DNA of 64,000 nucleotides from positions 38,450 to 102,449 of the IMG/VR virus record IMGVR_UViG_3300050821_005690, one strand, 5' to 3'. Shown piece after piece: positions 3,078-59,900 of the stretch (its first letter is position 1; each line of letters starts with the position of its first letter). The notes beneath the pieces were generated by a model. That model saw only the letters and a list, made by a program, of their open reading frames with translations. It did not search any database and was not told the DNA's origin. The position numbers were made by a program, and so were the translations under genes. This DNA comes from a virus.

Positions 3078-3081
3078 GGGG

Positions 3082-17019: not shown

Positions 17020-17309
17020 AGCTCTTTGAGGACAGCCAGGGCTTCATCTTTGCGTTCGGCTTCGACATGAACGCGCGCAAGCCGCACCACAGTATGATCT
17101 GCTGGTGCGATCCCGAAACGAAGGAGTGGGAGGCTACCTCCGCCAATCAAGCCGGGTGGCTCACGGTGCCGACCACGATCTTGGCGCCGGAGTTCGTGTT
17201 CGAGAGCCGGGACCGCGCGATCGTGGCTTATCAACCGGGGCTGTGCATCGAGCTGCGGCGCCAGGGGAAGCCGTTCGTGTTTACCCTGTTCACTATGCAC
17301 GCGAGGTGA
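17016..17309 (+). CDS. stand-alone fragment homologue of the tail nozzle protein
   Basis: collinear similarity to 39175-39435 of this window's nozzle gene (AFG..W.D..W....NQAG..T.PT..G.P.V). Confidence 0.7.
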   Translation: MKLFEDSQGFIFAFGFDMNARKPHHSMICWCDPETKEWEATSANQAGWLTVPTTILAPEFVFESRDRAIVAYQPGLCIELRRQGKPFVFTLFTMHAR

Positions 17310-19460: not shown

Positions 19461-21206
19461 GTGAAGTACCAGGAACTGCTCAAGCTCGGGAACCTGAACG
19501 AACTGTTCTTGGCCGCGACCCACGCGAAGCGGGCGAACTCCATGATCGATCGCGAGGACCTTGAGAACGATTTTTTGATGTTTCTGGAGGCTGCATGGCC
19601 GTCGATCGACTCGGCGCCGTTTCAATCGTGCTGGGCGATTGATGCGATGGCCCAGCACCTTGAGGCGGTCACGCTCGGTCATATCAAGCGGCTGCTGATC
19701 AACATTCCGCCCCGCTGCGCGAAGACGAACACGGCCTCGATCTGCTGGAACGCCTGGATATGGGCGCGCTCGCAGCAGAGCTTCGTCAGCGGCCCGCAGG
19801 TCAAGTTCCTAAGCGCCAGCTATAATTCAGCCTTGTCGTTGATGGCCTCCAACAAGACCCGACGTCTGATCATGAGCCCGTTCTATCAGGCGCTTTGGGG
19901 CGATCGATTCACGCTGCGGCTCGATCAGAACAGCAAGTCCCAGTTCGATAACACGGTCGGCGGCTCGCGCATCGCCACCTCGGTCCGTGGCTCGCTGCTC
20001 GGTCTGGGCGGCGATGTGATCTGCGTCGACGACCCACACAACACCGAGACCGAGAAGAAGATCGAGACCGATGCCGATCGGCGCGTTGTGGCTTCTTGGT
20101 ATCAAGAGCTTCATGGCACGCGCCTCAATAATCCGAAGCTCACGCCGCTCGTGGTGGTAATGCAGCGCCTGCACAAAGGCGATCTTTCTGGCATCATCCT
20201 CGACGGTTCCGAGCCATTTGTGCACGTCATGGTCCCGATGGAGTTCGACAGTCGGCGGCGGAGCGTCACTGTGATCCTCCCGCAACTCGATTACGAGGGG
20301 AAGGAACCCACCCCGTGGGCGGACCCCAGGACCGATGACGACGAGCTTATGTGGCCGGAGCGGTTCGGGCACCGTGAGTTGGAGCGCATGAAGCATCTGC
20401 TGGGGCCGTACATGGCGGCGGGGCGTTTACAGCAGAGTCCCATCGCCAAAGGCGGAGCAATCCTCAAGCGCGGCTGGTGGAAGCTGTGGGACATGGATGT
20501 AGCTCGCACCTATGGCCTGGAATGGGCCGAGGGTGGCCGGAAGGAGTTCCCGGAGTGCAGCTTCATCTGCGGGAGCCTCGACACCTCGTACGGGGAAAAG
20601 GACGAAAATAACTTCAACGCTCTGACGGTCTGGGGGGTGTGGGTCGATCACAATAAGAATCGCCGGGCGATGCTCATGTTCGCCTGGGCGAAGCGCCTGC
20701 CGCTGCACGGTCAAGTGCTCACGCCTCGGCCCAACGAGGCCGGGGTGAATTTCCGGGCCCGGCAGCAAAGGGAATGGGGACTGGTCGAGTGGGTCGCCGA
20801 CACCTGCCGCCGGTACAAGGTCCATCGCCTGCTGATCGAGGATAAGACCAGGGGGCACGACGTGGCGAACGAATTACGGCGCCTGTACGCCCGCGAGAAC
20901 TTCGGCATCGAGATGATCTCGGTAAACAAGATAGACAAGGTCTCCCGCACCCATTCGGTGGTTTCGCTTTTCGTCGATGACGTGGTATGGGCGCCGGAAA
21001 CGAAGTGGTCGGAAGAGGTGCTCGACCAATGCGAATACTTCCCGCGGCACGATCATGACGATCTGCACGACACGGTGACACAGTTCTTGAATTGGGCTAG
21101 AGAGCGCGGCATCTTATTGCGTGGCGACGAGATGAGCGCGGCTCTTGAGGATGAGGCGGCTTACAAGCCGAAGGATCATGGCGTCGCCGAGCATTACGGG
21201 GTTTGA
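19461..21206 (+). CDS. terL: terminase large subunit
   Basis: INIPPRCAKT Walker A-like, VICVDDPH Walker B, VMQRLH coupling motif, RNase H-like SLDTS...HDDLHD. Confidence 0.95.
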   Translation: MKYQELLKLGNLNELFLAATHAKRANSMIDREDLENDFLMFLEAAWPSIDSAPFQSCWAIDAMAQHLEAVTLGHIKRLLINIPPRCAKTNTASICWNAWIWARSQQSFVSGPQVKFLSASYNSALSLMASNKTRRLIMSPFYQALWGDRFTLRLDQNSKSQFDNTVGGSRIATSVRGSLLGLGGDVICVDDPHNTETEKKIETDADRRVVASWYQELHGTRLNNPKLTPLVVVMQRLHKGDLSGIILDGSEPFVHVMVPMEFDSRRRSVTVILPQLDYEGKEPTPWADPRTDDDELMWPERFGHRELERMKHLLGPYMAAGRLQQSPIAKGGAILKRGWWKLWDMDVARTYGLEWAEGGRKEFPECSFICGSLDTSYGEKDENNFNALTVWGVWVDHNKNRRAMLMFAWAKRLPLHGQVLTPRPNEAGVNFRARQQREWGLVEWVADTCRRYKVHRLLIEDKTRGHDVANELRRLYARENFGIEMISVNKIDKVSRTHSVVSLFVDDVVWAPETKWSEEVLDQCEYFPRHDHDDLHDTVTQFLNWARERGILLRGDEMSAALEDEAAYKPKDHGVAEHYGV

Positions 21207-22697: not shown

Positions 22698-25472
22698 ATG
22701 GCTGGAGGCCTAACCCCGTTCAACGGCGCGGATGCGGTCGAGGTCGTCGTCTCGTTCGCGGACGCTAACGGATTCGACCCCGAGAGCGATACCAGGATCG
22801 TCGCCAACGAGGACGGCTCGGTCGAAGTCGGCTGGGGCCCAGACGCGCGTCCGAAGCGCAAGCCGAGCGAATCCGAGAAGTTCGACGACAATATCGCCGA
22901 GTACCTGACCGACGCCGACCTGTCCATGGTCGCCGAAAGGCTGATTCTCGGCATCGAGCAGGATCTTCAAAGCCGATCGGAGTGGCTGGAGAACATGAGC
23001 CAGGGCATCTCCCTGCTCGGGCTCCAGATCAAGAACCCGCGCGGTGCGGCGGCAAGCGGGGCGACGCCGGCGGAGGGCGTCTCGACCGTCGACAGTCCGA
23101 TCCTGTTGGAAGCAGTCCTACGGTTCCAGGCGAATGCCGTTGGCGAGCTTTTGCCTGCGGACGGCCCGGTGAAGGTGCGCAACGACGGCTTGGGCAACGC
23201 CCTCACCGATCAGCTTGCCGACGCTCTCGAAAAGGACATGAATCATTACCTTACGAAGGTAGCGACAGAATACGTTCCCGACACCGACCGCATGCTGTTG
23301 ATGTGCGGCTTCTGCGGCATCGCCTTCAAGAAGGGGTTTCACGATCCGATCAAGCGGCGGCCGGTGATTGCCTCGATCAATGCCGAGGATCTGATCGTCT
23401 CGAACGCGGCGACCGACATCAACGGCGCCGGGCGCATTACCCATCGGATTCTGATGCGGCCCTCGTTGCTCCGCCGCATGCAATTGGTCGGGGCCTATCG
23501 CGATATCGTTCTGCCCGACACCGGCATGCCGCTGCAAGAGGACGCAGTCAAAAGCAAAATCCGGCAGACTCAAGGCATCGCGCCGCCAGCTTACGTCGAG
23601 CCGGGCGACCAGGATCGCGAGCTTTACGAGTGCTATTGCGAGGTCGACCTTCCCGGGTTTGAGCACACCCTGAAGGATGAAACGCCTACCGGCCTGCCGC
23701 TCCCGTACAAGGTCGTGCTCGATAAAGAATCGCGGCAAATCCTCGAAATCCGCCGCAACTGGGACGAGGATGATCTGTTCTGCCTCGCGCTGAACAGGAT
23801 CGTCGCCTACACCTTCATCCCGGGACTGGGTTTCTACGGCATCGGCCTGCTCAATGTGCTCGGCAACGCCACCAAGGCGGTGACGGCAGCGTGGCGCCTG
23901 CTGATCGACGCGGGCATGTACGCCAATTTCCCCGGATTCCTCTATCTCAAGTCTCTTGCCAAGCAATTGACTAACCAGTTCCGTGTGCCTCCGGGCGGCG
24001 GCATGCCGATCGATACCAGCGGCCAGGACATCCGCACGGCTATCATGCCGCTGCCGTACAAGGACCCGAGCGCGGTCTTTATCCAACTGATCGAGAAGAT
24101 CGCCGAGGGCGCGCAGCGGGTCGGCGGGACGGCCGAGCTACAGGTCGGCGAGGGGACGCAGAACGCCCCGGTCGGCACCACGCTCGCTTTGATCGAGCAG
24201 GCGACGCGGCTCATGGCGGCGGTGCACAAGCGCCTCCACCAAGCCCAAGGGCAGGAACTCGACATGCTCAAGAGCCTGCTGATGGAGGACCCCGAGGCGC
24301 TGTGGCGGCACAACAAGAAGAGCAAGGTGCTCAAGCTTTTGACCCAGATGGCCGGGCAACAGACTGTCGCTGACCAGATCGAGGAAGCCCAGAATCGGCA
24401 TCGGGCGTTGTTCCTGACGGCCTTGAGCGATGCGGAGCTTGTGCCGGCGTCCGATCCGAACACCTCGTCGCAGACCGAGCGCTACATGAAGGTGGTGGCG
24501 GCGCGGCAGATGGCTCAGACCAACCAGTCGATCGACATGAACGCCGTCGATTCCAAGGCCTTCAAGGTCATGGGCTGGGACAACCCCGATCAGTATTTCA
24601 AGCCGGCGCCACCTCCTGGTGCGCAGCCGCAGCCGTCGCCGGAAGAGCTTACCGCCCAGGCCACGATCATGGCCGCCCAGGCGCGCATCGCCGATTCCAG
24701 AACCAGGGCGCAGGAAGCTCAGATCAAGGCGACGACCGGGCAAGCCGAGCTTGCCTCAAAGGAGAAGATCGCCTCGCTGCAGGTCGCGCGCGAACTCGTT
24801 ATCCACGGTTCCGAACGCGAGCAGGCGGCACAAGAATCCGGCATTGCCAATCGCGAGAGTGCGGCCAACCGGCTTCACAAGCTTGCTCTGGCAAATATGG
24901 CCGGCCGCACCGCCAGTGCGCAGGGCGTGGCGGACAATGCCCACGAGGCAAACCAAGCGGCGATCGATCGCGCGCATGAAGCTGGTCTGGCCGACCAGCA
25001 ACGCCGGCACCAATTCTTCTCGAACATACTCGCCCAGCACCATGAGGCGACAGAGGGGGTGCTGGACCGCCAGCACGAGAAAGCGATGCAGCCTGCGGCG
25101 GAGGGGGTGGCGCGGCGGGCCTCTGGCGGCCGAGTCGAATCACCTTATCAAGAGCCTCCGCCTTCAAGGGTTATGACGGACTTGGTCGAGGCACTTCGCG
25201 CCATCTCGCGGGAGAATGAAGCGCGGACTTCGGCCTTGCGATCGATGGTGCAAAGCGGAACGCCGGCCGGGAACGATACGTCGATCGAAGTCTTGACCGC
25301 CTCAGTTAACCGTCTGATCGACTTGCAGTCGGCGCCCCGGGTGATCGTTCGTGATAGCAGCGGGAGGCCGATCGGGGCGCGTATCGATTTGCCCGCCGTG
25401 AGGAGTGAGTTGCCGACAATTACTAAAACCTCTGGCGGCGAGGTTGATATTCAGGTAGAAATCGAGGAATAG
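22698..25472 (+). CDS. portal protein (P22-like) with extended C-terminus
   Basis: PILLEAVLRFQA...GPVKV; FIPGLGFYGIGL; R.LIDAG..ANFPG; PVGTTLALIEQ; follows terL. Confidence 0.92.
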   Translation: MAGGLTPFNGADAVEVVVSFADANGFDPESDTRIVANEDGSVEVGWGPDARPKRKPSESEKFDDNIAEYLTDADLSMVAERLILGIEQDLQSRSEWLENMSQGISLLGLQIKNPRGAAASGATPAEGVSTVDSPILLEAVLRFQANAVGELLPADGPVKVRNDGLGNALTDQLADALEKDMNHYLTKVATEYVPDTDRMLLMCGFCGIAFKKGFHDPIKRRPVIASINAEDLIVSNAATDINGAGRITHRILMRPSLLRRMQLVGAYRDIVLPDTGMPLQEDAVKSKIRQTQGIAPPAYVEPGDQDRELYECYCEVDLPGFEHTLKDETPTGLPLPYKVVLDKESRQILEIRRNWDEDDLFCLALNRIVAYTFIPGLGFYGIGLLNVLGNATKAVTAAWRLLIDAGMYANFPGFLYLKSLAKQLTNQFRVPPGGGMPIDTSGQDIRTAIMPLPYKDPSAVFIQLIEKIAEGAQRVGGTAELQVGEGTQNAPVGTTLALIEQATRLMAAVHKRLHQAQGQELDMLKSLLMEDPEALWRHNKKSKVLKLLTQMAGQQTVADQIEEAQNRHRALFLTALSDAELVPASDPNTSSQTERYMKVVAARQMAQTNQSIDMNAVDSKAFKVMGWDNPDQYFKPAPPPGAQPQPSPEELTAQATIMAAQARIADSRTRAQEAQIKATTGQAELASKEKIASLQVARELVIHGSEREQAAQESGIANRESAANRLHKLALANMAGRTASAQGVADNAHEANQAAIDRAHEAGLADQQRRHQFFSNILAQHHEATEGVLDRQHEKAMQPAAEGVARRASGGRVESPYQEPPPSRVMTDLVEALRAISRENEARTSALRSMVQSGTPAGNDTSIEVLTASVNRLIDLQSAPRVIVRDSSGRPIGARIDLPAVRSELPTITKTSGGEVDIQVEIEE

Positions 25473-34745: not shown

Positions 34746-35330
34746 ATGAATACTCCAACTGGCCAATCCGGCGGCACGAGACCGGGGCAAGGCAAAACGT
34801 CACAGACGGGAACACCGCAGGTGCCGATGGCGGCCCGGCCGACAGAGCATGTCTCGACCGAGAATCTTCGGGCCGAAGACAAGCGCGGAACTGAGCACGT
34901 TCCTCCGCGCGCGCGCACGAGACTGCGCAAGGGCCTTGTGCAGCGGGATGAGTTCTTCGTCCCGATCGAGGAAATCCCGGACGGCCTGACCTATGAGTGG
35001 AAGCGGTTCAGCGTGAATGGCCAGGAAGACCCGTACTACCTCGCCCAGATGCGCGAGCAGGGGTTCGAGCCGGTTCCGCCCTCCCGCCACCCGAGCTGGA
35101 TCCCGCCGGGCTACAACGTCCCGCACATCGTCAAGGGCGGCATGATCCTGATGGACCGGCCGGTCGAGTTCACCAACGAGGCGCGCGCCGAGGCGCACGA
35201 TGCCGCCAACAAGCAGATCAGGGAAGCCGAGCAGCGTTTGGGTAAAACCCCTGTAGGCGAAATGATCCGCGAGGCTCCGAAGGTAATCAAGGAAATCGGC
35301 CGCATGGTGCCGATGGCAATCGAGGAATGA
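34746..35330 (+). CDS. conserved head-module protein
   Basis: IPDGLTYEWKR.SV.G...GFEPVP..RHP...GMILM.RP. Confidence 0.75.
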   Translation: MNTPTGQSGGTRPGQGKTSQTGTPQVPMAARPTEHVSTENLRAEDKRGTEHVPPRARTRLRKGLVQRDEFFVPIEEIPDGLTYEWKRFSVNGQEDPYYLAQMREQGFEPVPPSRHPSWIPPGYNVPHIVKGGMILMDRPVEFTNEARAEAHDAANKQIREAEQRLGKTPVGEMIREAPKVIKEIGRMVPMAIEE

Positions 35331-35836
35331 TCTCCCGCCGCTTCTTTCTCACGGGTGCTCTGGCGGCGCCAGTCGTGGTTGCCGCCAGCAACCTCGTGCC
35401 GCTCCGGGGCATCAAGTTCGATCCGATCATGCGTGTTCAATCATGGCCGATCGGGGAGAGCGCTTTCGGCGCATATTGGTCGCATGAAGGACCGCTGTCG
35501 AAGATCGGCGCCGTCGAAGAGACTATGCGGGAGATGTTCGGCGCCGCGTATCACCAGAAGATCGATTTTCCTATGCCCGGGGGGCCGATGTCCATTTTGG
35601 GTGTGCGGCCGACATTCGAGGAATGCGCGGAGCATCACCGGATGGCTAATAGTGGGTACGGGCCGAACGATCCACCCCCCAGGCGTTTTGCTTACAGAGG
35701 CGGCGTCGTCCGTCCTGATTCTGCTTATCCTCTCGAAGAGCAGAAGCGGGACATCGATCGCTACAAGGCGTATCACACCAGATCGACCAGGGCGCTTCGC
35801 AAACAGCTTGCCGAAATCTGCCATTGGGGCGCCTGA
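35327..35836 (+). CDS. twin-arginine-leader hypothetical protein
   Basis: MISRRFFLTGALAAPVVVAASNLVPLR leader. Confidence 0.7.
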   Translation: MISRRFFLTGALAAPVVVAASNLVPLRGIKFDPIMRVQSWPIGESAFGAYWSHEGPLSKIGAVEETMREMFGAAYHQKIDFPMPGGPMSILGVRPTFEECAEHHRMANSGYGPNDPPPRRFAYRGGVVRPDSAYPLEEQKRDIDRYKAYHTRSTRALRKQLAEICHWGA

Positions 35837-35891: not shown

Positions 35892-36596
35892 ATGTCGTAC
35901 GACTACAACGGCTTCGTTCAGTCGCTTGCGGGCATGCTCGTCATCCCCGCGACTAACACCGACTTCCTCACCAACCTTCCGAACGTCATCGACGACGCCG
36001 AGCAGCGCATCTACCGCGAGCTTGATCTTCTAGCGACCATCGTTCGCCAGACCGGCGCGTTTACCATGAACAGCCGCAACTTCATCCTGCCGAGCGGGGC
36101 GGGGCGGTTCGTGGTGACTGAGTCCATGAGCGTCATCGATCTTAGCGGCGCCCGCCGCGCCTTGATTCCGGCCTCGCGCGAGTACATCGACTTCGTCTAC
36201 GGATCGGACACGCCGAACACCACGCCATCCTACCCCGAATACTACGGGATGCTCACCGACCAGACGGTCCTTGTCGGACCGCCGCCGGACTCGGCCTACA
36301 CAGTTGAGGTGACCGGGACCATCCGGCCAACGCCGCTCTCGCCCACCAACACGACCACGTATCTTACGAACTACCTGCCGGATCTGTTTTTGGCCGAGGC
36401 TATGATCTTCGGCTACGGCTACATGAAAGACTTCGGGGCAATTGCGGACGATCCGCAGGGGTCCGCTAGCTGGACGAAGCACTACCAAGACTTGTGGCAG
36501 TCGGCCAACACCGAGGAGCAGCGCAAGCGCTACGCCTCGATGGTCTGGAACAGCAAGCAGCCGTCACCGATCGCAACGCCGCCGCGAGCGCAATAG
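35892..36596 (+). CDS. head-tail adaptor protein
   Basis: IDDAEQRIYRELDL...VGPPPDSAY.VE...NTTTYL..YLPDL. Confidence 0.75.
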   Translation: MSYDYNGFVQSLAGMLVIPATNTDFLTNLPNVIDDAEQRIYRELDLLATIVRQTGAFTMNSRNFILPSGAGRFVVTESMSVIDLSGARRALIPASREYIDFVYGSDTPNTTPSYPEYYGMLTDQTVLVGPPPDSAYTVEVTGTIRPTPLSPTNTTTYLTNYLPDLFLAEAMIFGYGYMKDFGAIADDPQGSASWTKHYQDLWQSANTEEQRKRYASMVWNSKQPSPIATPPRAQ

Positions 36597-41277: not shown

Positions 41278-42516
41278 ATGCCGCTTGAACACTCGTCCTC
41301 GGATGCGGCTCTCCATCGCAACATGCACACCCTGATGGGGGAGATCGGCAAAAGCCCGCACGTTCAGTCGCGGAAGCAGGCGATTGCAATTGCACTCGAA
41401 ACACAACGCCGGGGCGGGCGCGACACCGGCGGGGTAGTTGGCGACGACGAGGACCAGCCGCAGACCGGGAAGGGCAACGTGATGCTCTATCAGCGTTCCC
41501 AGGCCGGGACGATGAGGCAGATAGATCGCGATCGTGCGCAAGGGCGTGCCGATGGCGGCGTTGCACCACCAAGCGGCAACCCTTTCGCCGTCCTGGCGGG
41601 GCTCGACGCCATGGACGCGACGGGTATAGCGCCGTCCTATGCTGCCGGTGGCGGGGCCCCGGCCGACCCGGTGCAATCCGTTATCTCCGCCTTGCAGCAA
41701 GGGTCGGGCAACAGCGCGAGTCCGATGGCTTCGGGCTACCCCGGCGCGGGCATGGGGGTGAACAACACGCTGCAGCCGTCGAGCCCGATGCTGACGGCCA
41801 TGGCCAATCCGACCAGCGTGGCGAGTGGGGTTGCGCCGTCGCCGACTAATCCGGCTGCCATGGGCGTGGCAACGCAGTCTTTGCCAACTTTGGCGATGAT
41901 GCAGAAGAGAGACGGCGGCGCTGCCAAGCTCGCAATTGGCGGCTTCGATATTGCAAAGGGGCAAACGCCCGGTGTGCCCTGGTTTGAGCGCAGCGAGGCG
42001 CGGCAACTCCACACCGGCCCGGTCCTGTCGCACGTTCCTGGTCGCAGCGACAATCACCAGATCAAGGTCCCCTCGGGATCCTACGTCCTTCCGGCGCAGC
42101 ATGTCGCTTCGATGGGGCACGGTAATACGCTTGCGGGCATGTCGCTTGCGCACTCGATGTTCGGCGGCTACGTGCCTGGAGGAGGCGGGATACCTCACGG
42201 GCATCTGCCTCGCCCGCCGCGACCGGGTTTTGCCGCGGGCGGAGTGAGCGAGGGCGGCGCGCGCGAGGGGCACAATGGCTTTGAGGCGGTCCCGGTCGAC
42301 GTCAGCGGCGGCGAGTACATCATCCCGCCTTGGGCTATCATCCGCCGGTACGGCAGCCTGAAGAACGGCCACAAGATCCTCGACCGCTGGATCATGGATA
42401 CGCGGAAGGAAGAGATCAAAACCCAGAAGAAGCTTCCGCCGCCGGCAACCCGGTGGATCGGCGGCGGCGTTTGGGCGCCCTCTATTGTGCCAGACATCGA
42501 GGTTTTTGTAGCATGA
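41278..42516 (+). CDS. internal virion protein with GG motifs and GRSD...GEY domain
   Basis: KQAIAIAL N-terminus; VPGRSD...VPSGSYVLPA...GNTLAG; VPVDVSGGEYIIPP. Confidence 0.75.
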   Translation: MPLEHSSSDAALHRNMHTLMGEIGKSPHVQSRKQAIAIALETQRRGGRDTGGVVGDDEDQPQTGKGNVMLYQRSQAGTMRQIDRDRAQGRADGGVAPPSGNPFAVLAGLDAMDATGIAPSYAAGGGAPADPVQSVISALQQGSGNSASPMASGYPGAGMGVNNTLQPSSPMLTAMANPTSVASGVAPSPTNPAAMGVATQSLPTLAMMQKRDGGAAKLAIGGFDIAKGQTPGVPWFERSEARQLHTGPVLSHVPGRSDNHQIKVPSGSYVLPAQHVASMGHGNTLAGMSLAHSMFGGYVPGGGGIPHGHLPRPPRPGFAAGGVSEGGAREGHNGFEAVPVDVSGGEYIIPPWAIIRRYGSLKNGHKILDRWIMDTRKEEIKTQKKLPPPATRWIGGGVWAPSIVPDIEVFVA

Positions 42517-42965
42517 ACAGACGTCAGATTTTTGCCGTTCTAGCGGCCCTGCCGATCGTGGGGAAAATGATCCCCGCAGTCTCGGCTTCAGCACAGGAGC
42601 AGGTGGCCACTGACCATCTTGCCGCTGATATCGCCCGCAAGCTGGATACTTTGGCGGCGGTGTATCGGCCGTCTTCGCTTGCGGCTTATCGCGATCTGCT
42701 TCTGCCGGGATTGCGGGGGGCACTGCGCTATCCTGTCGAGGCCGACATCCAGATCGACTTTCTTACGGATACGCTTCTGGTGATGGCCGTCTACCCGCAA
42801 TACCCGCGAGCAGAGGATCGTTTGGTTATAGGCGTCATCACCCGGGAAAACCTTTCCAATCACCAGTGGTCGAAGTTTCAGCCGCTGCTTTCTCGAATGC
42901 GCGAGGTATTGTTCGCGCCAGACAGCGCTCCGGTAACACGCATCACCATGGACGAAATCACATGA
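42513..42965 (+). CDS. twin-arginine-like leader protein with fused major-capsid-like termini (mini-MCP)
   Basis: MNRRQIFAVLAALP; LAAYRDLLLPGLRG; EADIQIDFLTDTLLV. Confidence 0.65.
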   Translation: MNRRQIFAVLAALPIVGKMIPAVSASAQEQVATDHLAADIARKLDTLAAVYRPSSLAAYRDLLLPGLRGALRYPVEADIQIDFLTDTLLVMAVYPQYPRAEDRLVIGVITRENLSNHQWSKFQPLLSRMREVLFAPDSAPVTRITMDEIT

Positions 42966-43279
42966 AGACGATCGACGAGCGCGTGGTGTTCTCGAATATC
43001 TGCCTGGGCACCGGGTATTTTGCGGGCGTTGTGAACGTCACTCTCGGGGTGGCCTTGTGGACTCCCGAGCCGCAAGTGGACGGGGACGGCAAGCCTGCGG
43101 GCTACAAGATTGAGAACGCAGACATAGCGATTAACAATCGCCTGCGCCTCGACGTGCCGACCGCCAGGGCTCTGCATCAGCAGTTGGGTGATAGATTGGC
43201 GTTGATCGATTCGCAGTCGGTGGTGGGGGCCGGGCCGATTGCAGAGAATGGGGCGGCCGCAGGGGCAAAGCCGAATTGA
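42962..43279 (+). CDS. hypothetical protein
   Basis: ATGA-coupled; RLRLD...AR.L...L. Confidence 0.65.
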   Translation: MKTIDERVVFSNICLGTGYFAGVVNVTLGVALWTPEPQVDGDGKPAGYKIENADIAINNRLRLDVPTARALHQQLGDRLALIDSQSVVGAGPIAENGAAAGAKPN

Positions 43280-47755: not shown

Positions 47756-47917
47756 TGCTGGAGATCTTTCTGCGCGCGCAGCACCCCTGTGTGTTTCTGT
47801 GAAACATTTGCGATTAGCCTTTATCTTTCAGTCCGTTCGTTGCGCGCATCACAAAAATCGGTTGTAGGGCTTCAGATCACGTCCCATCCGTATATGAGTT
47901 CGGCCTTCATTTGATTT

Positions 47918-47950
47918 GTGATATTGGTTCCTCCGGGGATTCTCCGGGGG
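47918..47950 (+). promoter_or_regulatory. late promoter-like motif and hairpin covering the RBS of the giant ORF
   Basis: GTGATAT-N5-CCTCCGGGGA; CCTCCGGGG-ATT-CTCCGGGGG stem ends 5 nt before ATG. Confidence 0.5.
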
Positions 47951-47955
47951 GCATC

Positions 47956-50900
47956 ATGGCCGAACCAGCCAGCAATCCAGCCGACGAAGAGGAAGTCTGG
48001 ACGAAGACGCCAGCAGGTGGCGAGACTTCGGCGCCGGTCTCAGCCGCGCCCGCCGCCGAACCGGCGGAAGAAGAAGTCTGGACGAAGACACCGTCCTGGC
48101 GCGGCTATCCACAGGTCATCGGGTCGGGCGTCGCGCAAGGTGCCATCACCTCGGTTGGCGGGGCGATGCAGGGTGCCGCAGAGCTTCGGCACCCCGACTC
48201 CGAGAACTTCTATACAAGGGCTTTGAAGGTCATCGACCGCGTCGACCGGGGCGAAAGCGTCCCGGAGGACGAAGACATCATCGGCTACCAAAAGCTGGTC
48301 AAGTCCGATGGTTCGCCTGATGTCGAGCACCGGAAGCAGGTGCGATCCGACGCTATGACCTCGGCCGGGATCGCCAAGTCTCCCGAGGCCCCAGCCGCTT
48401 ACGACCCAAGGGAAACGTGGCTCTACAAGACGGGAAAGGAAGTCTCCGAGTACGGCGAACGCAAGTTCCCGATGTCGCAAGAGGAAAAGGAGTCGTACAC
48501 CGGGCGCATTAGCTCTGGCCTCGGCGCTATAGCGCCCCTGGTGGTCGCTGGCGCGGTCGCAGGCCCGGAAGTGGCCATGGGGCTTGGTGCGGCCCAGATG
48601 GGCCTTGGTGCCGCGCACGAGACCGCCGAAGAGGCGCGCGCCAAGGGCGCTTCACCGGAGGCCGTATGGGATGCGGCCGCAACTTCCTTCGGGGTTAATG
48701 CTGCGCTCGGTGCGGTGAAGTTTGATGCCGCGCTCAGGCCGATCAATCGGCTGGCACCAGGGATTTACGACTGGGCGCGCGCTCGCCTGCTGCACGCCAT
48801 GCAGAGTGGTGCGATCTTCACCACTATCGGCGAGGCGCAGGAATGGATCGGCAAGGAGATTGCCAACAAGTTCTATGACGACAAGGCGGGATACAGCTTC
48901 GACATCAAGCGCGTCCTCAGTTCACTTGGCGTCGGCGCGATCGTGGGGCAATTGCATCCGACAAAATACGAAGCCAAGCCTGGAGAGGAAAAGCCCGCGG
49001 CCGAGACGCCTGGAGCGGAAACACCTCCGGCAAAAGGCGGAGAAACCTTCGAGGACATGATGGGTCCTCGGCCCGGGCCGCCGCCGCCGCCGGCCAGAGA
49101 CGATGTGCTTGACGTGGCGCGCGCTAACGGCATCACGCCGGAGGCGTTCGAGGCTCTTGCGCCGGAGGTTCAAAGGAACCTCATACGGGATTTCAAGGGC
49201 GACACATCGATCTTGCCGGAGCAGGATGAGCATCGTCCCGGCGTTCCTGGCGGGCTAAGTGATCCGTCTATCTTTGCGCCCCAAGCCTCGCCTACGGGGC
49301 CAAGCGACTTCCTGCGCGAACGCGGTTTGACCTATGAGCAACTGGCGTCTGCCGACACAAAATATCTGAAGGTTCTTCAGGACGAATGGGCGGCAACGCA
49401 CCCTGACGAACCGTTGCTCAATATCGAGACGTTCAAGCCATCTGATATCCAGGCCGATCCCCAGCGGTTCCAGTTCCGCACCGACCAGATCGATGCAGCG
49501 TCGGGCGTCACCGCGAAGAAGCTTCGCCCTGGTGGCTTTAACCAGACCTTTCCGATGGTGGTCTGGCGCGATCTCGCTGGCAAAGACTTCATCGTTGACG
49601 GTCATCATCGGCTTAATGTCACCAAGCAGATGGAGGCAGCAGGCGAGCCGATCACCGTTCAGGCAATCGTTCTCAGGGAGCAAGACGGCGTCACGCCGCA
49701 AATGGCGAAGGATTTCGGCGAGCGTCGCAACGACTACCGCGACGCTACGGCGGGCGCGCGCCGCATTCCGGGGCTCAATGCGACCCCGCAGGAAATTGCC
49801 GAACTTCAAAACGCTATAGGTCAAAAAGCTCACCCGGAAGAGATTGAGAAGCTTCCGATCGTTCAAAGGGCCTACGCTCTCGGCAATGCGCAAAAGCCGG
49901 TCCAGGATCAGCCCGGCTATGGGTCGCCGGAATATCGTGCCAATCGGGTCTTCAATTTCAATGGCGAGCGGGTTGTTGGTTGGGACAATGCCGTTGACCG
50001 GCTTGAGCAGCGGGCACGCTCGTTTTCGACGGACGGCCCGGTCGCGAATGAGCGACGTGCCTGGATTGTCATGGGACCGGGCGGCGCGGGCAAGTCAACC
50101 GCAGTCATGGACTCGTTAGCGAGGCGTACCCGCTCCGCCATCGTCGATGCCGATGAAGCCAAGCCAACGATGCCGGAATATGCCGGTGGCCTCGGCGCCG
50201 GTGCAGTGCACGAAGAATCGACCGACCTGACTTACGGGCCGCACGGTGTTCTGCCCCGGATAATCCAAAATGGTGCCAATTTTGTCGTTGGCAAGATCGG
50301 CCATAAAGCGTCGAGCATCCGCGAACTCCGGGACGCCCTGAAGGCCGAAGGCTACAAAGTCAGTCTAATCAATGTCGATATTGAGCCGCAGGAGGCGTTT
50401 CGGCGCCGCATGGGCCGTTTCCTGCGGACCGGCCGCATCAACTCGACCGGGTTCCATGGTGATACGAGTTCCGCCAAAGGTGTGGTCACCACTAAAAATT
50501 ACCATATATTGAAGGGAGAAGGTTTCGATGGCTCACTCACGATTGACAACAATCGCCCCGAGCGCCCTTGGGAAGGGTCCGAAGAACTCGCCCGAGAAAT
50601 TGGATTACAACAGCCACGAAGCCCAAGACGAGCGGGATACCAAGAAGATGCTGGCGGGCATACGCTCCAAGGCGAAACGGTTCCCAACCTCAGACCGCAC
50701 CGAGTAGTAGCCGCCGACGGCACGTCGATCGACGTTGTGCCGATTGTCGTCGAAGCCAGTCAGTTACGCACCTCCAAAGATCCTGGATACAATCAGGCGC
50801 TTCAACCGCGTCAGCGCGATCGGGCGGCAGCGGAGGCGCAGGAAAGATACATTGCGGCTAATCTTGATCCTGAACTCTTGGGCCATTCGGCAGAGGCCGA

Positions 50901-53900
50901 CCGAGGCGCCCCGATCGTTGGACCGGACGATCCCGATGTCGAGAGCGGCAATGGCCGCGTCGAGGCGATCAGGCTGGCTTATGGGCAGGAACGAAACGGC
51001 CAGCCGTCGACTGCACAAATCTATCGGAACTGGCTGACGCAGCAGGGCGTCGACGTCTCCCGCTACCGGGAACCCATCCTGGTGCGCAAGCGCATCACGC
51101 CGATGACGCTGGAGCAGCGGCGGGCTTTCACTGTAGCAGCCAATAAGGATACCAAACTTTCGATGTCGATGCCGGAACGGGCGCTGGTCGATGCCCGGAA
51201 CCTTGGCACCGACGCCTTGGCTCTCATTCACAATCCCGACGACCTGGGCGCGGCGATCAACCGGCCGTTCTTCCGCCGGTTCGTCGCTTCGCTGCCGCAG
51301 GCCGAGCAGGGCGGCATGGCGGACGCCAAGGGCAATCTGTCGGCCGAAGGCCTCGCGCGCCTGCGCAACGCTATCCTGGCCAAGGCCTATGGCGATGCGG
51401 GCCTATTGGCGCGGGTGACCGAGTCCACCAACGACGAAGTTAAGTCAATTTCGAATGCGCTGACGGCTGCCGCGCCGCAATGGGCGCGCTTGCGGGCGGC
51501 TGTCGCTGATGGGCGAGTGCGCCCGGACATGGACGCCACGCCGCAATTGATCGAGGCAATAAGCCGGACGGCCGAACTCCGCAGCAAGGGCATCAAGCTT
51601 CACGACTATCTCGCCCAACTGGACGCCTTCGACCGGCCGGAGCCGGAGGTCGAGGACTTCATGCTGGCGTTCTACCATCCGGTGACGCGGCGTGCCGCCT
51701 CCTCGTCGCGCATTGCCGATGAGCTTCGGTTTTTTGCCCAAGAGGCCGCCAAGGTTTCGTCCGAGAAGGGCCTTGATCTGGGGCTAGCGCCAGTTGACCG
51801 CGAGCAACTCAGCAAACTCATGCTCGCTAAGGCAAGGGAGGAATACGAAAATGAGCTACCCGACCGCGATGGCACTCGTGCAGGCGCGCGCGATGAAGAG
51901 GATGGCCGCGAAGTACGCGGACTTAGACCTGGGACGGAGGGCCAATTACCTTCACAAAGAAGCCCTCTTGGCTTTGAAGAAGAGGCAATCCGCGCTCAGC
52001 AACCCACGGCCGACGAACTCCGCGCCCTCCGAAGGCCAGAGAGGCGGCTGAACGCTCGCGATCCGAGCCCGTGGGAGATTCGGAACAGCTACAAGAACAA
52101 AGCGAACACGGCTCTCGCTCACAAGATTTTCCCATTTCTGACCCACATCTCATACGATCGGTTTGCCGCCCATCGCTGGGTCCTCAAGCTTATCGACTTC
52201 AATCCATCGAACGGCGAAGAGGTGGCGAGAGGCCTTGTTAACCATGGCTACATGGCCGAGGGCGCCGCCGCCAAATATCGCAATTCTCCGGCCGATCAGA
52301 GGCGGTACGACGCCGTTTACAAGGCGTTTGCCGACTGGAAGGCGAAGCAAGAGGCAGGGTTGTTCGGCGGAGAAAAGGCGCAGGTCCCGCTGCGGCGCGA
52401 AGATGCGTACTCGGAAAATCAGAAGCTTGTTTATGGCCTGAAGCCTGGGGGAGTCGTCGTTCATGACGCGCTGGAGCTTGCCGTCACGAGACTGCCGGGA
52501 GCGAGCGATAAATATCACGTCGAGGGGTTCAAGACGCCGTTTGCCGCCAGCGGCGCAATTGCAAAGCTAACCGACCTGCAAATGCAGCGGGGGGTAAGGT
52601 CGCCGACCGAGTCCACAGTCCTGAAGGGGCCGAACGCTCCCGCGGTCGAGCCCGGCGCCGAAGGTAAGCCGCAGACCGTCATCCCTGGCGCCGAGCGGAT
52701 CAGCACCGCGGAACTCCTTCGCCGTCGCGCCGCCGAGCCGCTTCGAGCAACCCAGCCGCAGGCAATTCCCGGTGGCCTGTTCGGCAATCTGCTTGGCCAG
52801 ACCGATCTTCTCGACGCCATCCGCAAGGAGCCGCGCGCGCGCAAGGTGTTTGGCCACGAGACCCTGATCGATCAAGCGCTGCGCAAGGTGCCCTTGACGT
52901 CTGGGGAAAATCTGCCCAACTTATTCGGAGAGGTAGAAGATGCTGGACAAAGACCTAGACCTGACCGAGGAAAGGTTCGCCCTGGAGCACAAGCGCTTCC
53001 TGGAGCAGCACAACCCAAGCGTCCTACGCGGGCAAAGCGACCCGGACAGCTATCTCTCTTCGGTGGGGAGGGCGGCGGGGGAGAGGCTCGACCACCTGAT
53101 GTCGCACTACCTCCGGGACAAGGACCTACAGAAGCTATCGGCCCCGAAGAGGGCACTGGCGTTACAAAGCCGCCAGTTCGAGGTGGAGGAAGTGATCAGG
53201 CACGACCTGATCTTCCAACCCCTGCCGGAGGGGCACGACCGCCCGTACGAGTAAAGCCATCGATCCGGCAAGGCCAGCAGGAAGCCGAGCAGAAAATCGC
53301 CGAGCGCTCGCGCTCGAACTATCGCATTACCGATGAGGACGCGATCGGCGAAGGCGGCCCGAAGCAGAAGGTTCGCCAGAACATCGAGGCTATCCGCCTT
53401 CTCAAGCAGATCGAGGACGAGGGCCGTGAGGCGACGCCCGGCGAGAAGGCCATCCTGGTCAAGTACACCGGGTGGGGCCACGTCGCGCAGGATATGTTCG
53501 CGACTACGGGCAATCGCGAAGCCTGGGAGGGCGAGCGCGCTCAGTTACGGGCGCTGCTGACTGACGAAGAACTAGAGGCGGCGCAGGCCTCCACCCCCAA
53601 CGCCCACTTCACCTCGCCCGACGTCATCCGGGGCATGTGGGACGCGATGGACCACCTCGGCTTCGAGGGCGGCAATACCATCGAGCCATCTGTCGGCATT
53701 GGGCATTTCATCGGTCTCATCCCCGACAAGATGGCGCCCAAGACGGCCTGGACGGCGGTCGAGCTTGATCCGATCAGCGCGCGGATCACGAAGGCGCTCT
53801 ATGCCGGGACGGAAGTGAACGCTCACGGATTCGAGGATCTGAAACGACCGGCCAATTATTACGACCTCGCCATCTCGAACGTGCCGTTCGGCAAATATAA

Positions 53901-56900
53901 TTTGCGGGAGAAGCCCTACGGCTCGTTCCCGATTCACAATTTCTTTTTCGTGAAGTCGCTCGACAAGGTGCGGCCGGGCGGCATCGTCGCTTTCATCACC
54001 TCGCGTTATTCCATGGATGCGCCGGAGCACACCGAGTTTCGGCGCTTGTTGGCAAAGACCTCCGATCTGGTCGGCGCCATCCGCCTGCCCGGCGGCAAAG
54101 AGGGCGCGTTTGCTGACAACGCCGGAACACAAGTCACGACCGATCTCCTGTTCCTGCGCAAAAAGATACCCGGTCAGGATTTCGCTAGCGGCCATAAATG
54201 GGACGGGCTGAAGGATATCGAAACCCCGGAAGGCCCCACCAAGATCAACGAGTATTACGTCGCTAATCCGCACATGATGCTCGGCGACATGCGCCTGATC
54301 GGCTCACAGTACGGCCCCAACGAACCCGTGCTGATCGGCGATCCGAACGGGCTGCGCGAGAAGATCGCGGAAGCGGTGGCCAAAAACACCCCGGCTGGCG
54401 CAATGACGCCTCGCACCGAGGCCACGACCGTTGAAAACATTCCCGCGGGCGACATTGATGCGGGCATTAAAGACGGGGCCTTCTTCCTTCAGAACGGCAA
54501 GCTGCATCAGCGGGTCGCCGGACTGGGCGTGCCGAGGGATGTGTTGCCCGCCGATCACGCTCGCATTGAGCGCCTCATCGGCCTTCGCGATCTCTATAAC
54601 GGTCTGCTCGGGGCCCAACTCGGCGGCGAGGGAGATCGGGAAGCCCTGCGCAAGCAATTGCGCGAGGCCTACGATGATTTCGTCAAAGAGCACGGACCGA
54701 TCAATAAGGAAGTCCGCACGGTCACCAAGCGCCTGACCCAGGCAGGCGAGCCCGTCGTTATTACCAGAACGCCGAATCTGCGGACGTTCAAGGAGGACCC
54801 CGACGCGTGGAAGGTGGCATCGCTCGAACACTACGATGCCGAGAAAGACACGGCGAAGCGTTCCGACATTCAAACGCGAGATGTTATCGCTCCCCCGCGC
54901 GAGCGAGAGATCAGAGGGCCTTCTGATGCTCTAGCCGCCTCGCTCAACGACACCGGCGGCATCGACCTCGATCACGTTGCCAACTCGCTCAATGTCGACA
55001 GCCACGATGCTGCCATCTCGGCCCTCGGCAACCTCATCTTCCACGACCCCAACGGACGGCAGTGGAAGACCGCCGACGAATATCTCAGTGGCAACGTCGT
55101 AGAGAAGCTGGAGGAAGCGCGCTCGATCGCGCAAAGCGATCCGTCGTTCCAGCGCAACGTAAAGGCCCTGGAGAAGGTGCAACCGAAGCCGGTCACCGGC
55201 AGCCAGATTTATGCTGGCTTCGGAGCGACATGGATTCCCGGTGAAGTGTACGAGAGCTTCCTGGAGGATCATCTTGGCGCCAGTGATGTTCACGTCCAAC
55301 AGATCCCGATCACCGGCGAGTGGCGCGTCGAGGGCGACACTTTCGCGAGAGATGCGCGCATCAAGTACATCCCGAAGGATCAGAATGGCATTTCGCGTGC
55401 AAACGTCCGTGAGATGGTCTCTGCCGCCCTGAACGGGCGCACCATAACCATCAGGGACAAGATTAAGAATCCTGATGGCAGCACCAGCGAGCGGGTCAAC
55501 ACCGCAGCAACCCAGGACGCCTCTAACAAACTTGAGGCTTTGAAGGAGGCCTTCACCGGCAATCCCCAAGAAGGAATCGACGATTGGTGGTCAAAGGACG
55601 ATGAGCGCCGGCAGCGGATGGAGGGAATCTTCAACCGCACTCACAACAATCTCGCCCCCCGCGAGTTTGACGGCTCACACTTGGAGCTGCCGGGGCTCAA
55701 TCCGATGTTCGCCGAGCGTAAGCATCGCCTCGACGCGATCTGGCGGATTATCCAGCGCGGCAACACCCTGCTCGGGCATGCGGTCGGAAGCGGCAAAACC
55801 GTGACCATGATCGCGGCGGGCATGGAGCAAAAGCGCCTCGGGCTGATCAACAAGCCCGCCTATGTGGTGCCGAACCACATGCTGGAGCAGTTCTCGCGCG
55901 AGTTCCTACAGGCCTACCCGAACGCCAAAATCCTCGTCGCCAGCAAAGAGGAAACGTCTGCGGATCATCGCAAGGCCTTCCTGGCCAAGGTGGCGTCGAA
56001 CGACTGGGACGGCGTTGTCATCACGCACGACGCTTTCGGCCGGATCAACATGGGCCAGGAGTATCGGCGCCAGTTCATTCGCGACCAGATCGGTGAAGCC
56101 ATCCGGGTCATCCAGGCCGAGAAGGCCGAGTCCGGCGCCAAGTCACCCACGGTCAAGCGCCTGGAGGCAGCCAAGAAGCGACTGGAAGAAAAACTGCAAA
56201 AGCTGCTGAACGAAGAGCGCAAGGATGAGGGCACCTCGTTCGAGGAAAGCGGCATCGATCATCTGTTCGTCGATGAGGCGCACCTGTTCAAGAACCTGCA
56301 TTTCTTCACGCGCCTGGGCGGTATCAAGGGTTTGGCCACAAGCGAGGCGCAGCGCTCCGAGGACTTGTTTTTGAAAATCCGATACCTGGAGCAGAAGCGC
56401 CCTGGGCGCTCGGCGGTGTTCGCCTCGGGCACGCCGATCTCGAACACCATGGCCGAAGCCTGGACCATGATGCGCTATCTCCAATTGGACAATCTGCGCG
56501 AGCGCGGCCTTTCGAACTTCGATGACTGGGCCCGGACCTTCGGCCGGATCTCCAAGAAGATGGAGACTTCGCCGGACGGGCGTACGCTGCAGGAAGTCGC
56601 CTCGATGTCCTTCGGCAATGTGCCGGAGTTGGGTGCCCTTTGGAACGAGGTTGCCGACACCAAGACGGCGGACATGCTCAAGCTGCCGCGGCCGGACGTG
56701 GTGCGCGAGAACGGCGAGAAGGGGGTCACGACCGTCGAGGCCGAGCCCTCCCGCCAGGAAGAGGCGGCCATTCAAGCCCTGGTCGCCGAGGCCGAGCATA
56801 TGAGGGCGCACCCGAAGCGGCCGGAGCCGGGCGACCGCATCATGCTCAACATCGTCACGGACGGCCGCAAGGTGGCGACCGATGGACGCCTGCTTGGCGA

Positions 56901-59900
56901 TATGGATTTCAACCCGCGCGGCAAGGTGGCGCTCGCGGTCAACAACATTCACAAAATCTGGGAGGAAGGTAATCAGGACCCCGACGCTCCAAACAAGGGG
57001 CAGATGGTTTTCCTCGATCTCGGCGTGCCGAAGAAAGGCGGCGGCGCCGATCGATTTGACCTTTATCGCGATCTCAAGCAGCGCCTAGTCGAGAAAGGCA
57101 TTCCGGCAAAGGACATTGCGTTTATCCACGACGCGGACAGCGACGACAAAAAGGCCAAGCTGTTCGGGGCTGTGCGCAGCGGCAAGGTCAGAGTCTTGGT
57201 TGGCTCGACCGGCAAGATGGGTATGGGCACCAATGTCCAGGACCGCCTCATCGCTAAGCACGACATCGATGCGCCGTGGAAGCCTGCCGAGGTGGAGCAG
57301 CGCGACGGCCGCATCGAGCGCCAAGGCAATTTGAACGCGAACGTGCGGATCTACCGCTACGTGACCAAGCGCTCGTTCGACGCCTTCATGTGGCAGACCC
57401 TTGAGCGCAAGGCGAACATGCTCAACCAGTTCTTGAGCGGCGCCAAGGGCTCGCGAACCATGGAGGACGTGGGCGAGGTATTGCCGGAGGCGGCCGAGTT
57501 GAAGGCAGCCGCGAGCGGCGACCCGCGCATCATGGAGCATGCCGAGCTTGATCGGCGGGTGCGGCAACTGTCCTCGCAGCGGCGCTCGTTCGAGCAAACG
57601 CAGCAGCGCGCGACTTACGAGATCGGCGTGGGCAAAAGCCAACTCAAGCAGTATCAGGACCATTTGCCCGGCGCGCGCCTGGACGCCGACATGGTCAACG
57701 ACCTGTCCGGCAAGAACTTCCAGGTCGACCTCGGTGACCTGGGGCCATTCACCGAGCGCAAGGCCGCGGGCGATGCCATTCTAGATGCCCTGCGTAAGCT
57801 CGACTCGCGAAGTTACTACCGACCTGTCGTGCTCAACATGGGCCGCATGTCCGGGTTCGACATGCAGATGCAGGTGCAAACTCACTACGACCACAGCAGC
57901 GGCACGGTGCTCGTAGCCAACCCTTCACTGAAAGGCCCGTCCGGCGCCGGCTACATCGCCAGCGACTTTTATATCAATGAGCACACGGAAGGTCTCGCAG
58001 TAATCCGCCGCCTCGAAGGTGCGCTTGGCCGGGTCAAAGACGAGCCGTCGCGCATAGAAGGGCTCATCAAAAACCAGCAAAATGAAATCGAGCGGCTTCA
58101 GAAGACGTTGGGCGAGACGTGGCCGCGCGAGCAGGAGTACCGCGAGGCCTTGGCGAAGCTCGACGCTCTGACGAAGGCACTCAAGGCACCGAAGCATCCT
58201 GACGTCGCCGAGATGGAGCACGAGAACGCTTACGCCAAGCTCCAGGCCGAGGCGCTCGAAGCGCAGCACGAGTCGCCGATCTTTGACGAAGACAAGGAGT
58301 GGCTGTCTAAGCCCAAGCTGATCAAGGAGAAGGCGGAGAAGGTCGCTGAGACCGTCCGTGATATCCCGCGCCCGCGCGATGTGGTTGGCGTCAGCGACAT
58401 CACCAAGGTCGGGCCGCCGCACGACATGCAAAAGCATGCGGTGTTCGGCCTGCCGCTCAATCCCTTGAGCGCCCTGGAGCAACTCAAGGGGCATTCGTTC
58501 AACGTCAGTTATGCGACCAGGGCGAAGCTCGGGCGGCAGTTGGACGACGCCATCCGTCTTGTCGGCAAGGACAAGATGCTCCTACTCGACAACGGTGCCT
58601 TCTCATTGCACCGCCAGGGAAAAAGCACCCTCGAACCGGGCTACATGGAGGATTACGAGAAGTGGGCGGGCGGCATCATGGACCGCTCGCCGCAGGCTAT
58701 TGCTGTTGTGCCCGATGTGATCGGCGGGACCGAGCACCAGAATGCGCAGCTTGTCCGCGACTGGCTCGGCGGCAAGATCGACCCGGACCGCTCAATGGCG
58801 ATCTGGCACCTGCACGAGAGCATGGATTACCTGAAATACCTCGCTCAAAGCTTCAATCACATCGGGTTTGGAAGCTCCGGTCAGTTCTGGAAGGTAGGCA
58901 CACCCGAGTGGCACGCCCGCATCCAGGAAGCGCTCGACACGATCCAGAAGATGGAGGACGACGGCGAGATCACCCGTCCGCGCATTCACATGATGCGGGC
59001 CCAGTCGCAAGCGCACCTCTATCCGTTCGATAGCTCGGACTCGACCAACGTCGCGGTCAATCACAATCGCTTCCGCGAACTCTACCCCGGGCCGGACCAC
59101 GTCGGCCGCATGGCCGAGCGCATCAACGAGCGCATCCAGGGGAGCGCCACAGGCAAGGAAACTCCGCACCAAGAAGCCCGGCCGCTTGGCGAGACGCCGG
59201 AGCGCCCGGACTCTGATCTGTACGCCTTGGCACAGTGGTTCAACCACAATTACGAAGTGGTGAAGCGGCAGGGCGACCTGTTCGACCACATCAAAGAGAA
59301 CCGTCCGGCATGGGGGAAGGGCGCGCAAGAGCGCATCCCTACCGACTGGGAGACGGCGCAGCGGCGAGTGATCGGCCTACTTGATGAGAACGCTATCGAT
59401 CTCGGCCCCACTACTCGCGCCTATGTCAGCGAGAAGTGGAGTGCCAACGAGCGCAAGATTGCCGACGCCGTCCAGGCGATCGGCGACCGCATGGCGCCGC
59501 AATCCTCGATCTATGGCGCCAAGGCCTTGCACATGCACGGTTCGCCGATCTGGGGTGTGTTCGTCAACTCGAAGGCCTTCCCGCAGACCATCGCGTGGTC
59601 GCTGGAGCGCGCGGGCAAGCTCGGCGATGCAGTCGAGAGGGCGGGCCCGCTGGCGCGCGTCGCCACGACCGTCCGTCACGAGATTATCCACCACCTCAAG
59701 AACTCGGGGCTTATCCGCCCCGACGAATGGAAGGCCCTTGAGCAGGCTGCGAAGGAGGGCGATTGGCTCAAGAAGTACGACATCGAGGACCGCTACTCTC
59801 ATCTCAATGAAGCCGGCAAGCTGGAGGAAGCAATTGCCGATCATTTCGGGCAATGGGGGCAAGAGCGCGAAATCCTCAAGCAGATTAAGGACCCGATACA

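Follow-up and report, generated by a model that had tools for sequence, protein, structure and literature searches.

A phage mini-protein with an export-type leader that joins three conserved segments of the major capsid protein in permuted order

We analysed a 64,000-nucleotide stretch of viral DNA (the window) that forms the final 64 kb of the 102,449-bp IMG/VR virus record IMGVR_UViG_3300050821_005690, which is rated complete by CheckV and belongs to a phage without a close cultured relative. The gene of interest is a 150-aa open reading frame (ORF) in the late operon, which an initial annotation, made from the letters of the window, had taken for a miniature major capsid protein (MCP) with N- and C-terminal capsid signatures fused and the core deleted. 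This gene is translationally coupled at both ends, through ATGA overlaps with the 412-aa ORF upstream and the 105-aa ORF downstream, and lies next to ORFs of 1,344 and 5,384 aa. As read from their sequences, the former likely encodes a cell-wall-hydrolase protein and the latter a giant packaged protein, both of them likely ejection proteins. Since the giant ORF runs off the end of the record and closes once the two ends of the record are connected, the record is probably a permuted complete genome. We found that the product of the 150-aa ORF (hereafter the mini) is real and unusual: a mini-protein with an export-type leader that joins, in a changed order, three conserved stretches of the MCP encoded elsewhere in the same record. 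The coordinates of all features are collected in Table 1.

Both peptides that had drawn attention to this ORF are present, LAAYRDLLLPGLRG at 42678-42719 and EADIQIDFLTDTLLV at 42738-42782, with a gap of six residues between them. According to the initial annotation, MCPs of this podophage group carry such motifs near their two ends, some 250 residues apart. The consensus of the MCP family bears this out (...NLSAIRDLLLPGLRG... and ...ETDMQVDFTTDNLLVKG...), and in the 308-aa MCP of this phage the motifs are about 260 residues apart. When the whole record was translated in six frames, the pattern RDLL.PGLRG occurred twice, in the mini and at residues 9-18 of a 308-aa ORF, as did D.Q.DF.TD.LLV, in the mini and at residues 273-285 of the same ORF; neither motif occurred in 100 shuffled genomes. 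At its start the 308-aa ORF reads ...NVAAVRDLLVPGLRG, and toward its end it reads ...EIDMQVDFTTDNLLVKG..., after which come 21 further residues. Since it lies outside the 64-kb window, it was not visible when the initial annotation was made.

The 308-aa protein is an HK97-fold MCP of the Mu gpT-like/PF25209 group. Its relatives, of which there are more than 5,500, carry precomputed PF25209 and in some cases also PF10124, and a homologue with 59% identity to it (60% in A3, our 29-member MCP alignment) exceeds the Pfam Mu-like_gpT threshold. Its nearest cultured relatives, from Pelagibacter, Roseobacter, Planktothrix, and Caulobacter phages (33-37% identity), are annotated as capsid protein. The AlphaFold2 (AF2) model of the MCP (pLDDT 75, pTM 0.74) has a helix at its N-terminus, the strands of the E-loop, a long helix spanning 108-127, a middle domain of alpha/beta type, and, at the C-terminus, a long hairpin (262-295) with strands 262-277 and 282-295. 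A Foldseek search of the PDB with this model returned solved phage capsids (phiXacJX1, D3, HK97, SU10, Mu, and GTA), from E 3e-12.

The mini matches this MCP in three separate segments, designated S1, S2, and S3. Comparing the profile of A2, a 12-member alignment of mini proteins, with that of A3 gave E 9.5e-10. The two short split matches to one MCP that had been expected were returned by BLASTP: mini 45-90 aligned with MCP 240-285 (41% identity, E 2e-6), and mini 55-71 aligned with MCP 4-20, with 11/17 residues identical (65%, E 1e-4). Identity reaches 52% between mini 65-93 and MCP 260-288. Taken alone in this mini, S3 is weak (hhalign E 5e-4). In the leaderless sister mini L108, it is 55% identical over 31 aa to residues 85-113 of that phage's own MCP (E 2e-6), and in the mini/MCP pair of G004 the two proteins share the pattern ITR....I....YK..F.P, with 47% identity over 17 aa. 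The mini profile matches all 20 related MCPs in pieces, and A4, an enlarged mini profile, matches the MCPs of 15 further related records in three separate pieces in every case (15/15). In these MCPs, the order of the pieces is S1, S3, S2, whereas in the mini it is S1-S2-S3. No matches to MCP 20-84 or 117-259 were found in the mini profile comparison. The first description of the protein was thus right in that it is a composite from which most of the MCP is missing, but a third, "core" segment (MCP ~85-116) has been kept and not deleted.

Conservation within the mini family is concentrated in these segments. Twenty-one positions of S1-S3 are at least 80% conserved among the minis, and at 18 of the 21 the residue is the one conserved in MCPs. 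R60, D61, L63, and L67 of S1 are invariant in the family. Outside S1-S3, the conserved positions are almost exclusively leader residues.

Mapped onto the MCP model, S1 corresponds to the N-arm helix and S2 to the long hairpin at the C-terminus; S3 takes in the strand following the E-loop, a short helix, and the first part of the long helix. In the HK97 fold, the spine helix together with the sheet makes up the P-domain (PMC5701804). By this standard description, S2 and S3 are the P-domain core, and the mini is an N-arm plus P-domain core in permuted order. The three segments presumably touch in three dimensions. The AF2 model of the mini has a pLDDT of 76 overall and of 77-93 across residues 56-150, with a helix at 56-70, strands at 76-82, 87-93, and 104-110, helices at 111-115 and 118-134, and a strand at 141-145. 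The secondary-structure elements of S1-S3 in this model are those of the MCP model, including the E-H-H pattern of S3, and the N-arm helix packs on the sheet of the same chain. The insertion at residues 28-51, which falls within an AF2 helix at 22-50, is absent from all other family members (A2/A4). About 95 residues remain after the leader and this insertion, and the full canonical HK97 fold is absent, with the E-loop and the A-domain missing. Because the fold is incomplete and the order permuted, the mini is, as judged from its sequence, a derivative of the MCP and not a member of the HK97-fold MCP family.

The N-terminus of the mini has the make-up of an export leader. It begins M-N-R-R-Q-I-F and continues with an h-region of 13 uncharged residues, K18 in the c-region, and A-S-A before Q28. 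Ten members carry, at the same alignment position, Z-R-R-x-hydrophobic-hydrophobic, at least 13 uncharged h-region residues, and an AxA (small-x-small) site, and most of the ten also have a basic c-region residue after the h-region. M1, N2, R3, R4, P14, and G17 are invariant across the leader-bearing members. Twin-arginine translocation (Tat) signal peptides share the Z-R-R-x-hydrophobic-hydrophobic motif, the moderately hydrophobic Pro/Gly h-region, the basic c-region, and the AxA site, but the mini leader differs from them in lying below detection by the Tat-signal HMM TIGR01409. An identical N-terminus, MNRRQ-I/L-FAV, is present in bacterial S41 C-terminal processing peptidases, which are envelope proteins. 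A genome-contig scan gave no matches other than to such S41 peptidases, from Eisenbacteria metagenome-assembled genomes; these matches were at the level of the leader only, and we rejected them as relatives of the mini. Based on these features, the mini is probably exported, and its leader fits a Tat-type signal by motif, which does not establish Tat rather than Sec.

Similar leaders were seen on other small ORFs of the clade, at 35327-35836 and 5423-5725 of the window and in G004, L108, and G019. The ORF at 35327-35836 (plus strand) encodes a 169-aa protein with an S-R-R-F-F-L leader and lies between a 194-aa gene and the SU10-like adaptor gene; its product scores 12.8 bits against TIGR01409, where the cut-off is 16.7.

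Table 1. Positions of the mini gene, its parts, and the other genes discussed. Coordinates refer to the window unless the record is named.
Feature	Coordinates	Strand	Remarks
Mini-MCP ORF, 150 aa (P0001)	42513..42965	+	ATG 42513, TGA 42965
Export leader, residues 1-27	42513..42593	+	Twin-arginine type by motif, read from sequence
Residues 28-52	42594..42668	+	Residues 28-51 are a member-specific insertion; no MCP match
S1, copy of MCP N-arm	42669..42725	+	Mini 53-71 = MCP 2-19, hhalign E 7.4e-10
S2, copy of MCP C-terminal P-domain beta-hairpin	42726..42797	+	Mini 72-95 = MCP 267-290, hhalign E 1.5e-9
S3, MCP post-E-loop strand and spine-helix start	42822..42917	+	Mini ~104-135 = MCP ~85-116
C-terminal family-specific strand R-I-T-M-D-E	42933..42956	+	AF2 strand 141-145; no MCP counterpart found (alignments A1/A2)
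412-aa gene, left border of mini slot	41278..42516	+	Kept in relatives; weak DUF6496/phrog_2423 N-terminus
105-aa gene, right border of mini slot	42962..43279	+	Kept in relatives
MCP, 308 aa	record 2140-3066		Outside the window; second match when the record was searched with the mini protein
Second leader-bearing N-arm ORF, 100 aa	5423..5725	+	Twin-arginine-like leader ERRGFLLGL...
Terminase large subunit	19461-21206
Portal (SU10_portal)	22698-25472		Pfam family match; SU10 = Kuravirus-type
Adaptor (SU10_adaptor)	35892-36596		Pfam family match; SU10 = Kuravirus-type
Giant ORF	47911-64000, open to record end	+	Joined to the record start, closes 21 codons later = 5,384 aa

A word-indexed search of 5.8 billion proteins found two mini relatives, P0003 and P0004. 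When 1.84 billion representatives were searched exhaustively, ten proteins of 103-151 aa, the query and P0004 among them, scored E<=1e-3. Scans of viral and metagenome data contributed L091 (identical to P0127), L092, and L108; the metagenome scan by itself yielded only the L091 twin and L108. Searches of whole records added the G004 mini and two aberrant forms from G005. Comparing the mini with Pfam, PHROGs, and NCBIfam, and by tblastn with 50,697 phage records, gave nothing meaningful, and the ESM Atlas gave no usable match. The L108 mini, of 107 aa, is a singleton among the 5.8 billion proteins. In all, about 15 intact members are known, with 21-70% identity to this member (A4), and the family is small, fast-evolving, and sporadic among related phages, in which it occupies different loci.

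The position of the gene varies among relatives. L091 has its mini in the same slot, with both overlaps kept. Among five complete relatives of 96-104 kb whose MCPs are 85-90% identical, the slot is empty in G002, G003, and G004, while in G001 and G005 it is filled by other inserts (L095 and L097) that are Cys/His-rich and HNH-like, which suggests that the slot is an insertion hot spot. The mini of G004 instead follows the presumed internal-virion-protein gene, in a low-GC island that holds two more proteins with twin-arginine-like leaders. In this island (L083:1160-3347), the leader-bearing mini-MCP is 116 aa long, and one of its companion ORFs is a paralogue of the 169-aa protein of our window. 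The L108 mini sits after the portal gene and the L092 mini adjoins the terminase gene. Of 21 related records, only 4 carry a multi-segment mini, and the locus is a different one in each of the four. Given this rate of occurrence, the variation of the slot, and the differing loci, the mini gene is therefore accessory and mobile within genomes. At L108:6459-6997, the leaderless 107-aa mini-MCP and an adjacent 72-aa ORF have identical first 11 residues (MTHNRTPVDSS), and this shared 5' module suggests recombination there; a Cys-rich 137-aa ORF with a similar leader lies at L108 7225-7638.

Of the 26 residues that the mini and the MCP share in S1 and S2, 18 are encoded by different synonymous codons, so by this measure of the sequences the copy is old, not recent. 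Because about 15 diverged members are intact and the shared residues have been kept while synonymous sites diverged, the mini is a maintained accessory derivative and not a remnant. As to its origin, the sequences would be compatible with a tandem duplication of the MCP gene followed by two in-frame deletions, which we offer as a possible inference only. The junction of the first deletion may lie between the P-G-L tripeptides at MCP 14-16 and 260-262 (CCCGGA CTT and CCCGGG CTT), and the spacing from P-G-L to E.D is the same in this mini as in the MCP C-terminus. We also considered whether the residue after P-G-L, R or W, co-varies between minis and their MCPs. W is present at this position in 1 of 87 MCPs; L092 has W in both proteins, but L108 has W in its mini and R in its MCP, and the idea is unsupported. 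In this clade, the block that encodes a 215-aa protein, the MCP, and a 427-aa protein (record 1489-4388) lies on the other side of the giant gene, and in the smaller relative L092, genes for a decoration-like protein and the MCP occupy the position of the 169-aa ORF of our window.

Pieces of the MCP also occur in other small ORFs of the clade, in arrangements of their own. In the 100-aa leader-bearing ORF at 5423-5725, residues 63-94 resemble MCP 1-32 (37% identity), and residues 20-54 are similar to positions 254-287 of the 427-aa protein whose gene follows that of the MCP, both pieces having the motif G-[FY]-D-x-Y-G-x-P-x-T-E; the two pairwise matches have E-values of 2.4e-4 and 1.9e-4. An 81-aa ORF in G008 (L135:626-871) and a 90-aa ORF in G019 (L136:569-841) carry a copy of the MCP N-arm (residues ~1-34) at their start, reading …VRDLLLPGLRG… and …IRDHLMPGLY…, and close with a hydrophobic segment that T-R-R-F-W-S-G-W comes after. 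The G008 ORF lies directly 3' of a terminase-like C-terminus. Of the two aberrant G005 forms, one (L113:1468-1974, 168 aa) has the same S2-S3 junction and a full spine-helix match, has no N-arm, and includes a piece, A-L-R-P-G-T...D.N, that corresponds to MCP 218-229; the other (L118:1126-1755, 209 aa) consists of two tandem S1/S2-like units. We rejected as unproven a 97-aa ORF at window 17016-17309 (plus strand) as a nozzle fragment, the match being just 17 residues long (nozzle 450-466, 47% identity, pairwise E 0.002). Since the N-arm turns up again and again in differing architectures, in many cases combined with an element for membrane targeting, we argue that the N-arm itself is the useful part.

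As for function, the reading we lean toward, and hold only tentatively, is that the mini presents the N-arm/P-domain surface of the capsid outside the cytoplasm to whatever ligand that surface has, with proteins ejected by incoming relatives as the leading candidates. The mini domain would be a small alpha/beta fold that cannot form capsomers, because the A-domain and the E-loop are missing. During late expression, it would be delivered to the cell envelope, either to the periplasm or, if left uncleaved, to the inner membrane, where it would amount to a free-standing copy of the N-arm/P-domain surface. There it might, speculatively, bind a ligand that normally recognizes this surface, for example a protein that is packaged in related capsids and ejected through the envelope, and the outcome could be the exclusion or the sensing of superinfection. 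A broader proposal, which we regard as doubtful, is that this clade of ~60-100-kb uncultured podophages keeps a toolkit of self-fragments, mainly the N-arm, that are fused to leaders or anchors, shuffled among loci, and used as capsid mimics in conflicts with other phages or with the host. One such tool could be a trap or sensor, placed in the envelope, for proteins that superinfecting relatives eject.

Several observations weigh against an envelope-located capsid mimic. The mini has no match to TIGR01409 at E<=1, although HMMs for short signals are insensitive. L108, L092, and the G005 forms lack the leader, and the core function therefore need not be located in the envelope. Structure searches with the mini model (Foldseek PDB, VIA-align, and BFVD) returned generic alpha/beta sandwiches and no capsid, using aligners that are sequential, whereas the mini domain is permuted. 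The MCP-like residues could be conserved because both proteins face the same constraints on folding, and not because they have a partner in common. Finally, promoter-like (sigma-70-type consensus) and terminator-like sites around the gene do not exceed the level in shuffled sequence, and the gene is co-translated with late virion genes, while exclusion genes known so far are usually early or prophage-expressed.

If folding is what these residues serve, the fold may have been exapted without any mimicry, as an MCP-derived alpha/beta scaffold that serves some unrelated purpose in the envelope, for instance binding peptides or acting like a chaperone. Most of the invariant shared residues are indeed hydrophobic or structural (L, P, G, I, and F), the rest of the mini sequence evolves fast, and the packing of the N-arm helix on its own chain points the same way. 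The VIA-align neighbours, at Z 4-8.7, are peptide-binding alpha/beta sandwiches in the noise range of the tool, and the best of 48,161 chains, a designed peptide trap at Z 8.7, is also inside the stated noise. Recurrence of the N-arm with other partners in unrelated small ORFs (window 5423-5725, G008, and G019) speaks against such exaptation, which we judge somewhat unlikely. A morphogenetic role, in which the mini tunes or times assembly by competing with the MCP, or complementing it, in the contact with an N-arm/P-domain partner (scaffold, decoration protein, or neighbouring MCP), would suit its co-expression with structural genes and the existence of leaderless members. In phage P22, the coat N-arm is the scaffold-binding site, and by analogy the invariant R-D of the mini N-arm could retain such a site. 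However, the leader should take this member out of the cytoplasm, and since the gene is absent from most close relatives (MCPs 85-91% identical), it is not needed for assembly, which makes this role unlikely. The neighbourhood of the gene could also bring to mind a packaged ejection protein, whose MCP-like part would be a tag that targets it into proheads and whose hydrophobic N-terminus would enter the host membrane after ejection. The mini gene lies within the presumed ejection-protein block, between conserved genes to which it is translationally coupled, and in relatives, further ORFs with an N-arm have a hydrophobic segment at the C-terminus instead. Yet the classical n-h-c leader with its conserved AxA predicts export in the producing cell, relatives dispense with the gene, and the second N-arm ORF is located a long way upstream of the structural genes, so that we regard packaging as distinctly unlikely.

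The initial annotation had favored a mimic over a remnant, with capsid-sensing defences as its target. The part of this view that opposes a remnant has held, in that the gene is maintained and intact in ~15 diverged relatives, but a decoy acting in the cytoplasm fits this member poorly and is in our opinion very unlikely. It is true that the most conserved MCP segments are the ones copied, that a sporadic, fast-evolving, multi-locus pattern is typical of conflict genes, and that leaderless paralogues could work in the cytoplasm. Against this, the conserved export leader places this member outside the compartment of such a sensor. Known capsid sensors, of the CapRel and Lit paradigms, are activated by epitope binding, and a faithful mimic would be expected to trigger rather than block them; in addition, a literature search found no such decoy. 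Least probable of all, and highly improbable, is a non-functional scar of capsid-gene rearrangement. In its favour, the position of the MCP block in this clade has shifted from that in smaller relatives, and homing-endonuclease-like inserts fill the same slot in some relatives. A scar would not be expected to keep its frame in ~15 diverged members, to retain both couplings in L091, to hold its motif residues while synonymous sites diverged, or to have a confidently predicted fold.

Capsid proteins are usually regarded as shell subunits, and our literature search brought up no earlier example of a truncated MCP paralogue, a capsid decoy, or a Tat-exported exclusion protein. If the domain does mimic a capsid surface, it would represent a new viral use of the virus's own virion fragments in conflict or regulation, and it would point to a binder of the N-arm/P-domain surface in this type of capsid. 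Even without mimicry, the mini is a clear example from nature of an HK97 fold that has been circularly permuted and has had domains excised, and, if the predicted model is right, it could offer a minimal, independently folding P-domain for structural study.

Compared with HK97-fold MCPs of the Mu gpT-like/PF25209 group, the mini has three segments that are homologous at the profile level and the same secondary-structure elements of the N-arm and P-domain. It differs in being about one third as long, in its permuted order, and in lacking the E-loop and A-domain and hence the capsomer contacts. It also has an export leader and an extra C-terminal strand, and its gene is accessory rather than core. 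Other capsid-protein derivatives that have been kept for a role beyond the main shell subunit are the T4 vertex protein gp24, Ccm of phage-inducible chromosomal islands, and the encapsulins. To our knowledge, all of these retain the whole HK97 fold; Ccm redirects capsid size, and the T4 gp24, Ccm, and encapsulin proteins still assemble shells in the cytoplasm. The mini, in contrast, has been reduced to the N-arm/P-domain core, and its predicted fate is export. T4 Sp, HK97 gp15, and TP-J34 Ltp are small envelope proteins with a signal or anchor that mediate superinfection exclusion, and HK97 gp15 and Ltp are encoded in or near structural modules and act on the proteins of incoming virions. These proteins are unrelated to the mini in sequence and fold and are not derived from virion proteins, and the mini differs from them further in having no promoter of its own that stands out from shuffled sequence. 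What the mini would have in common with T4 Sp, HK97 gp15, and Ltp is solely its proposed way of working.

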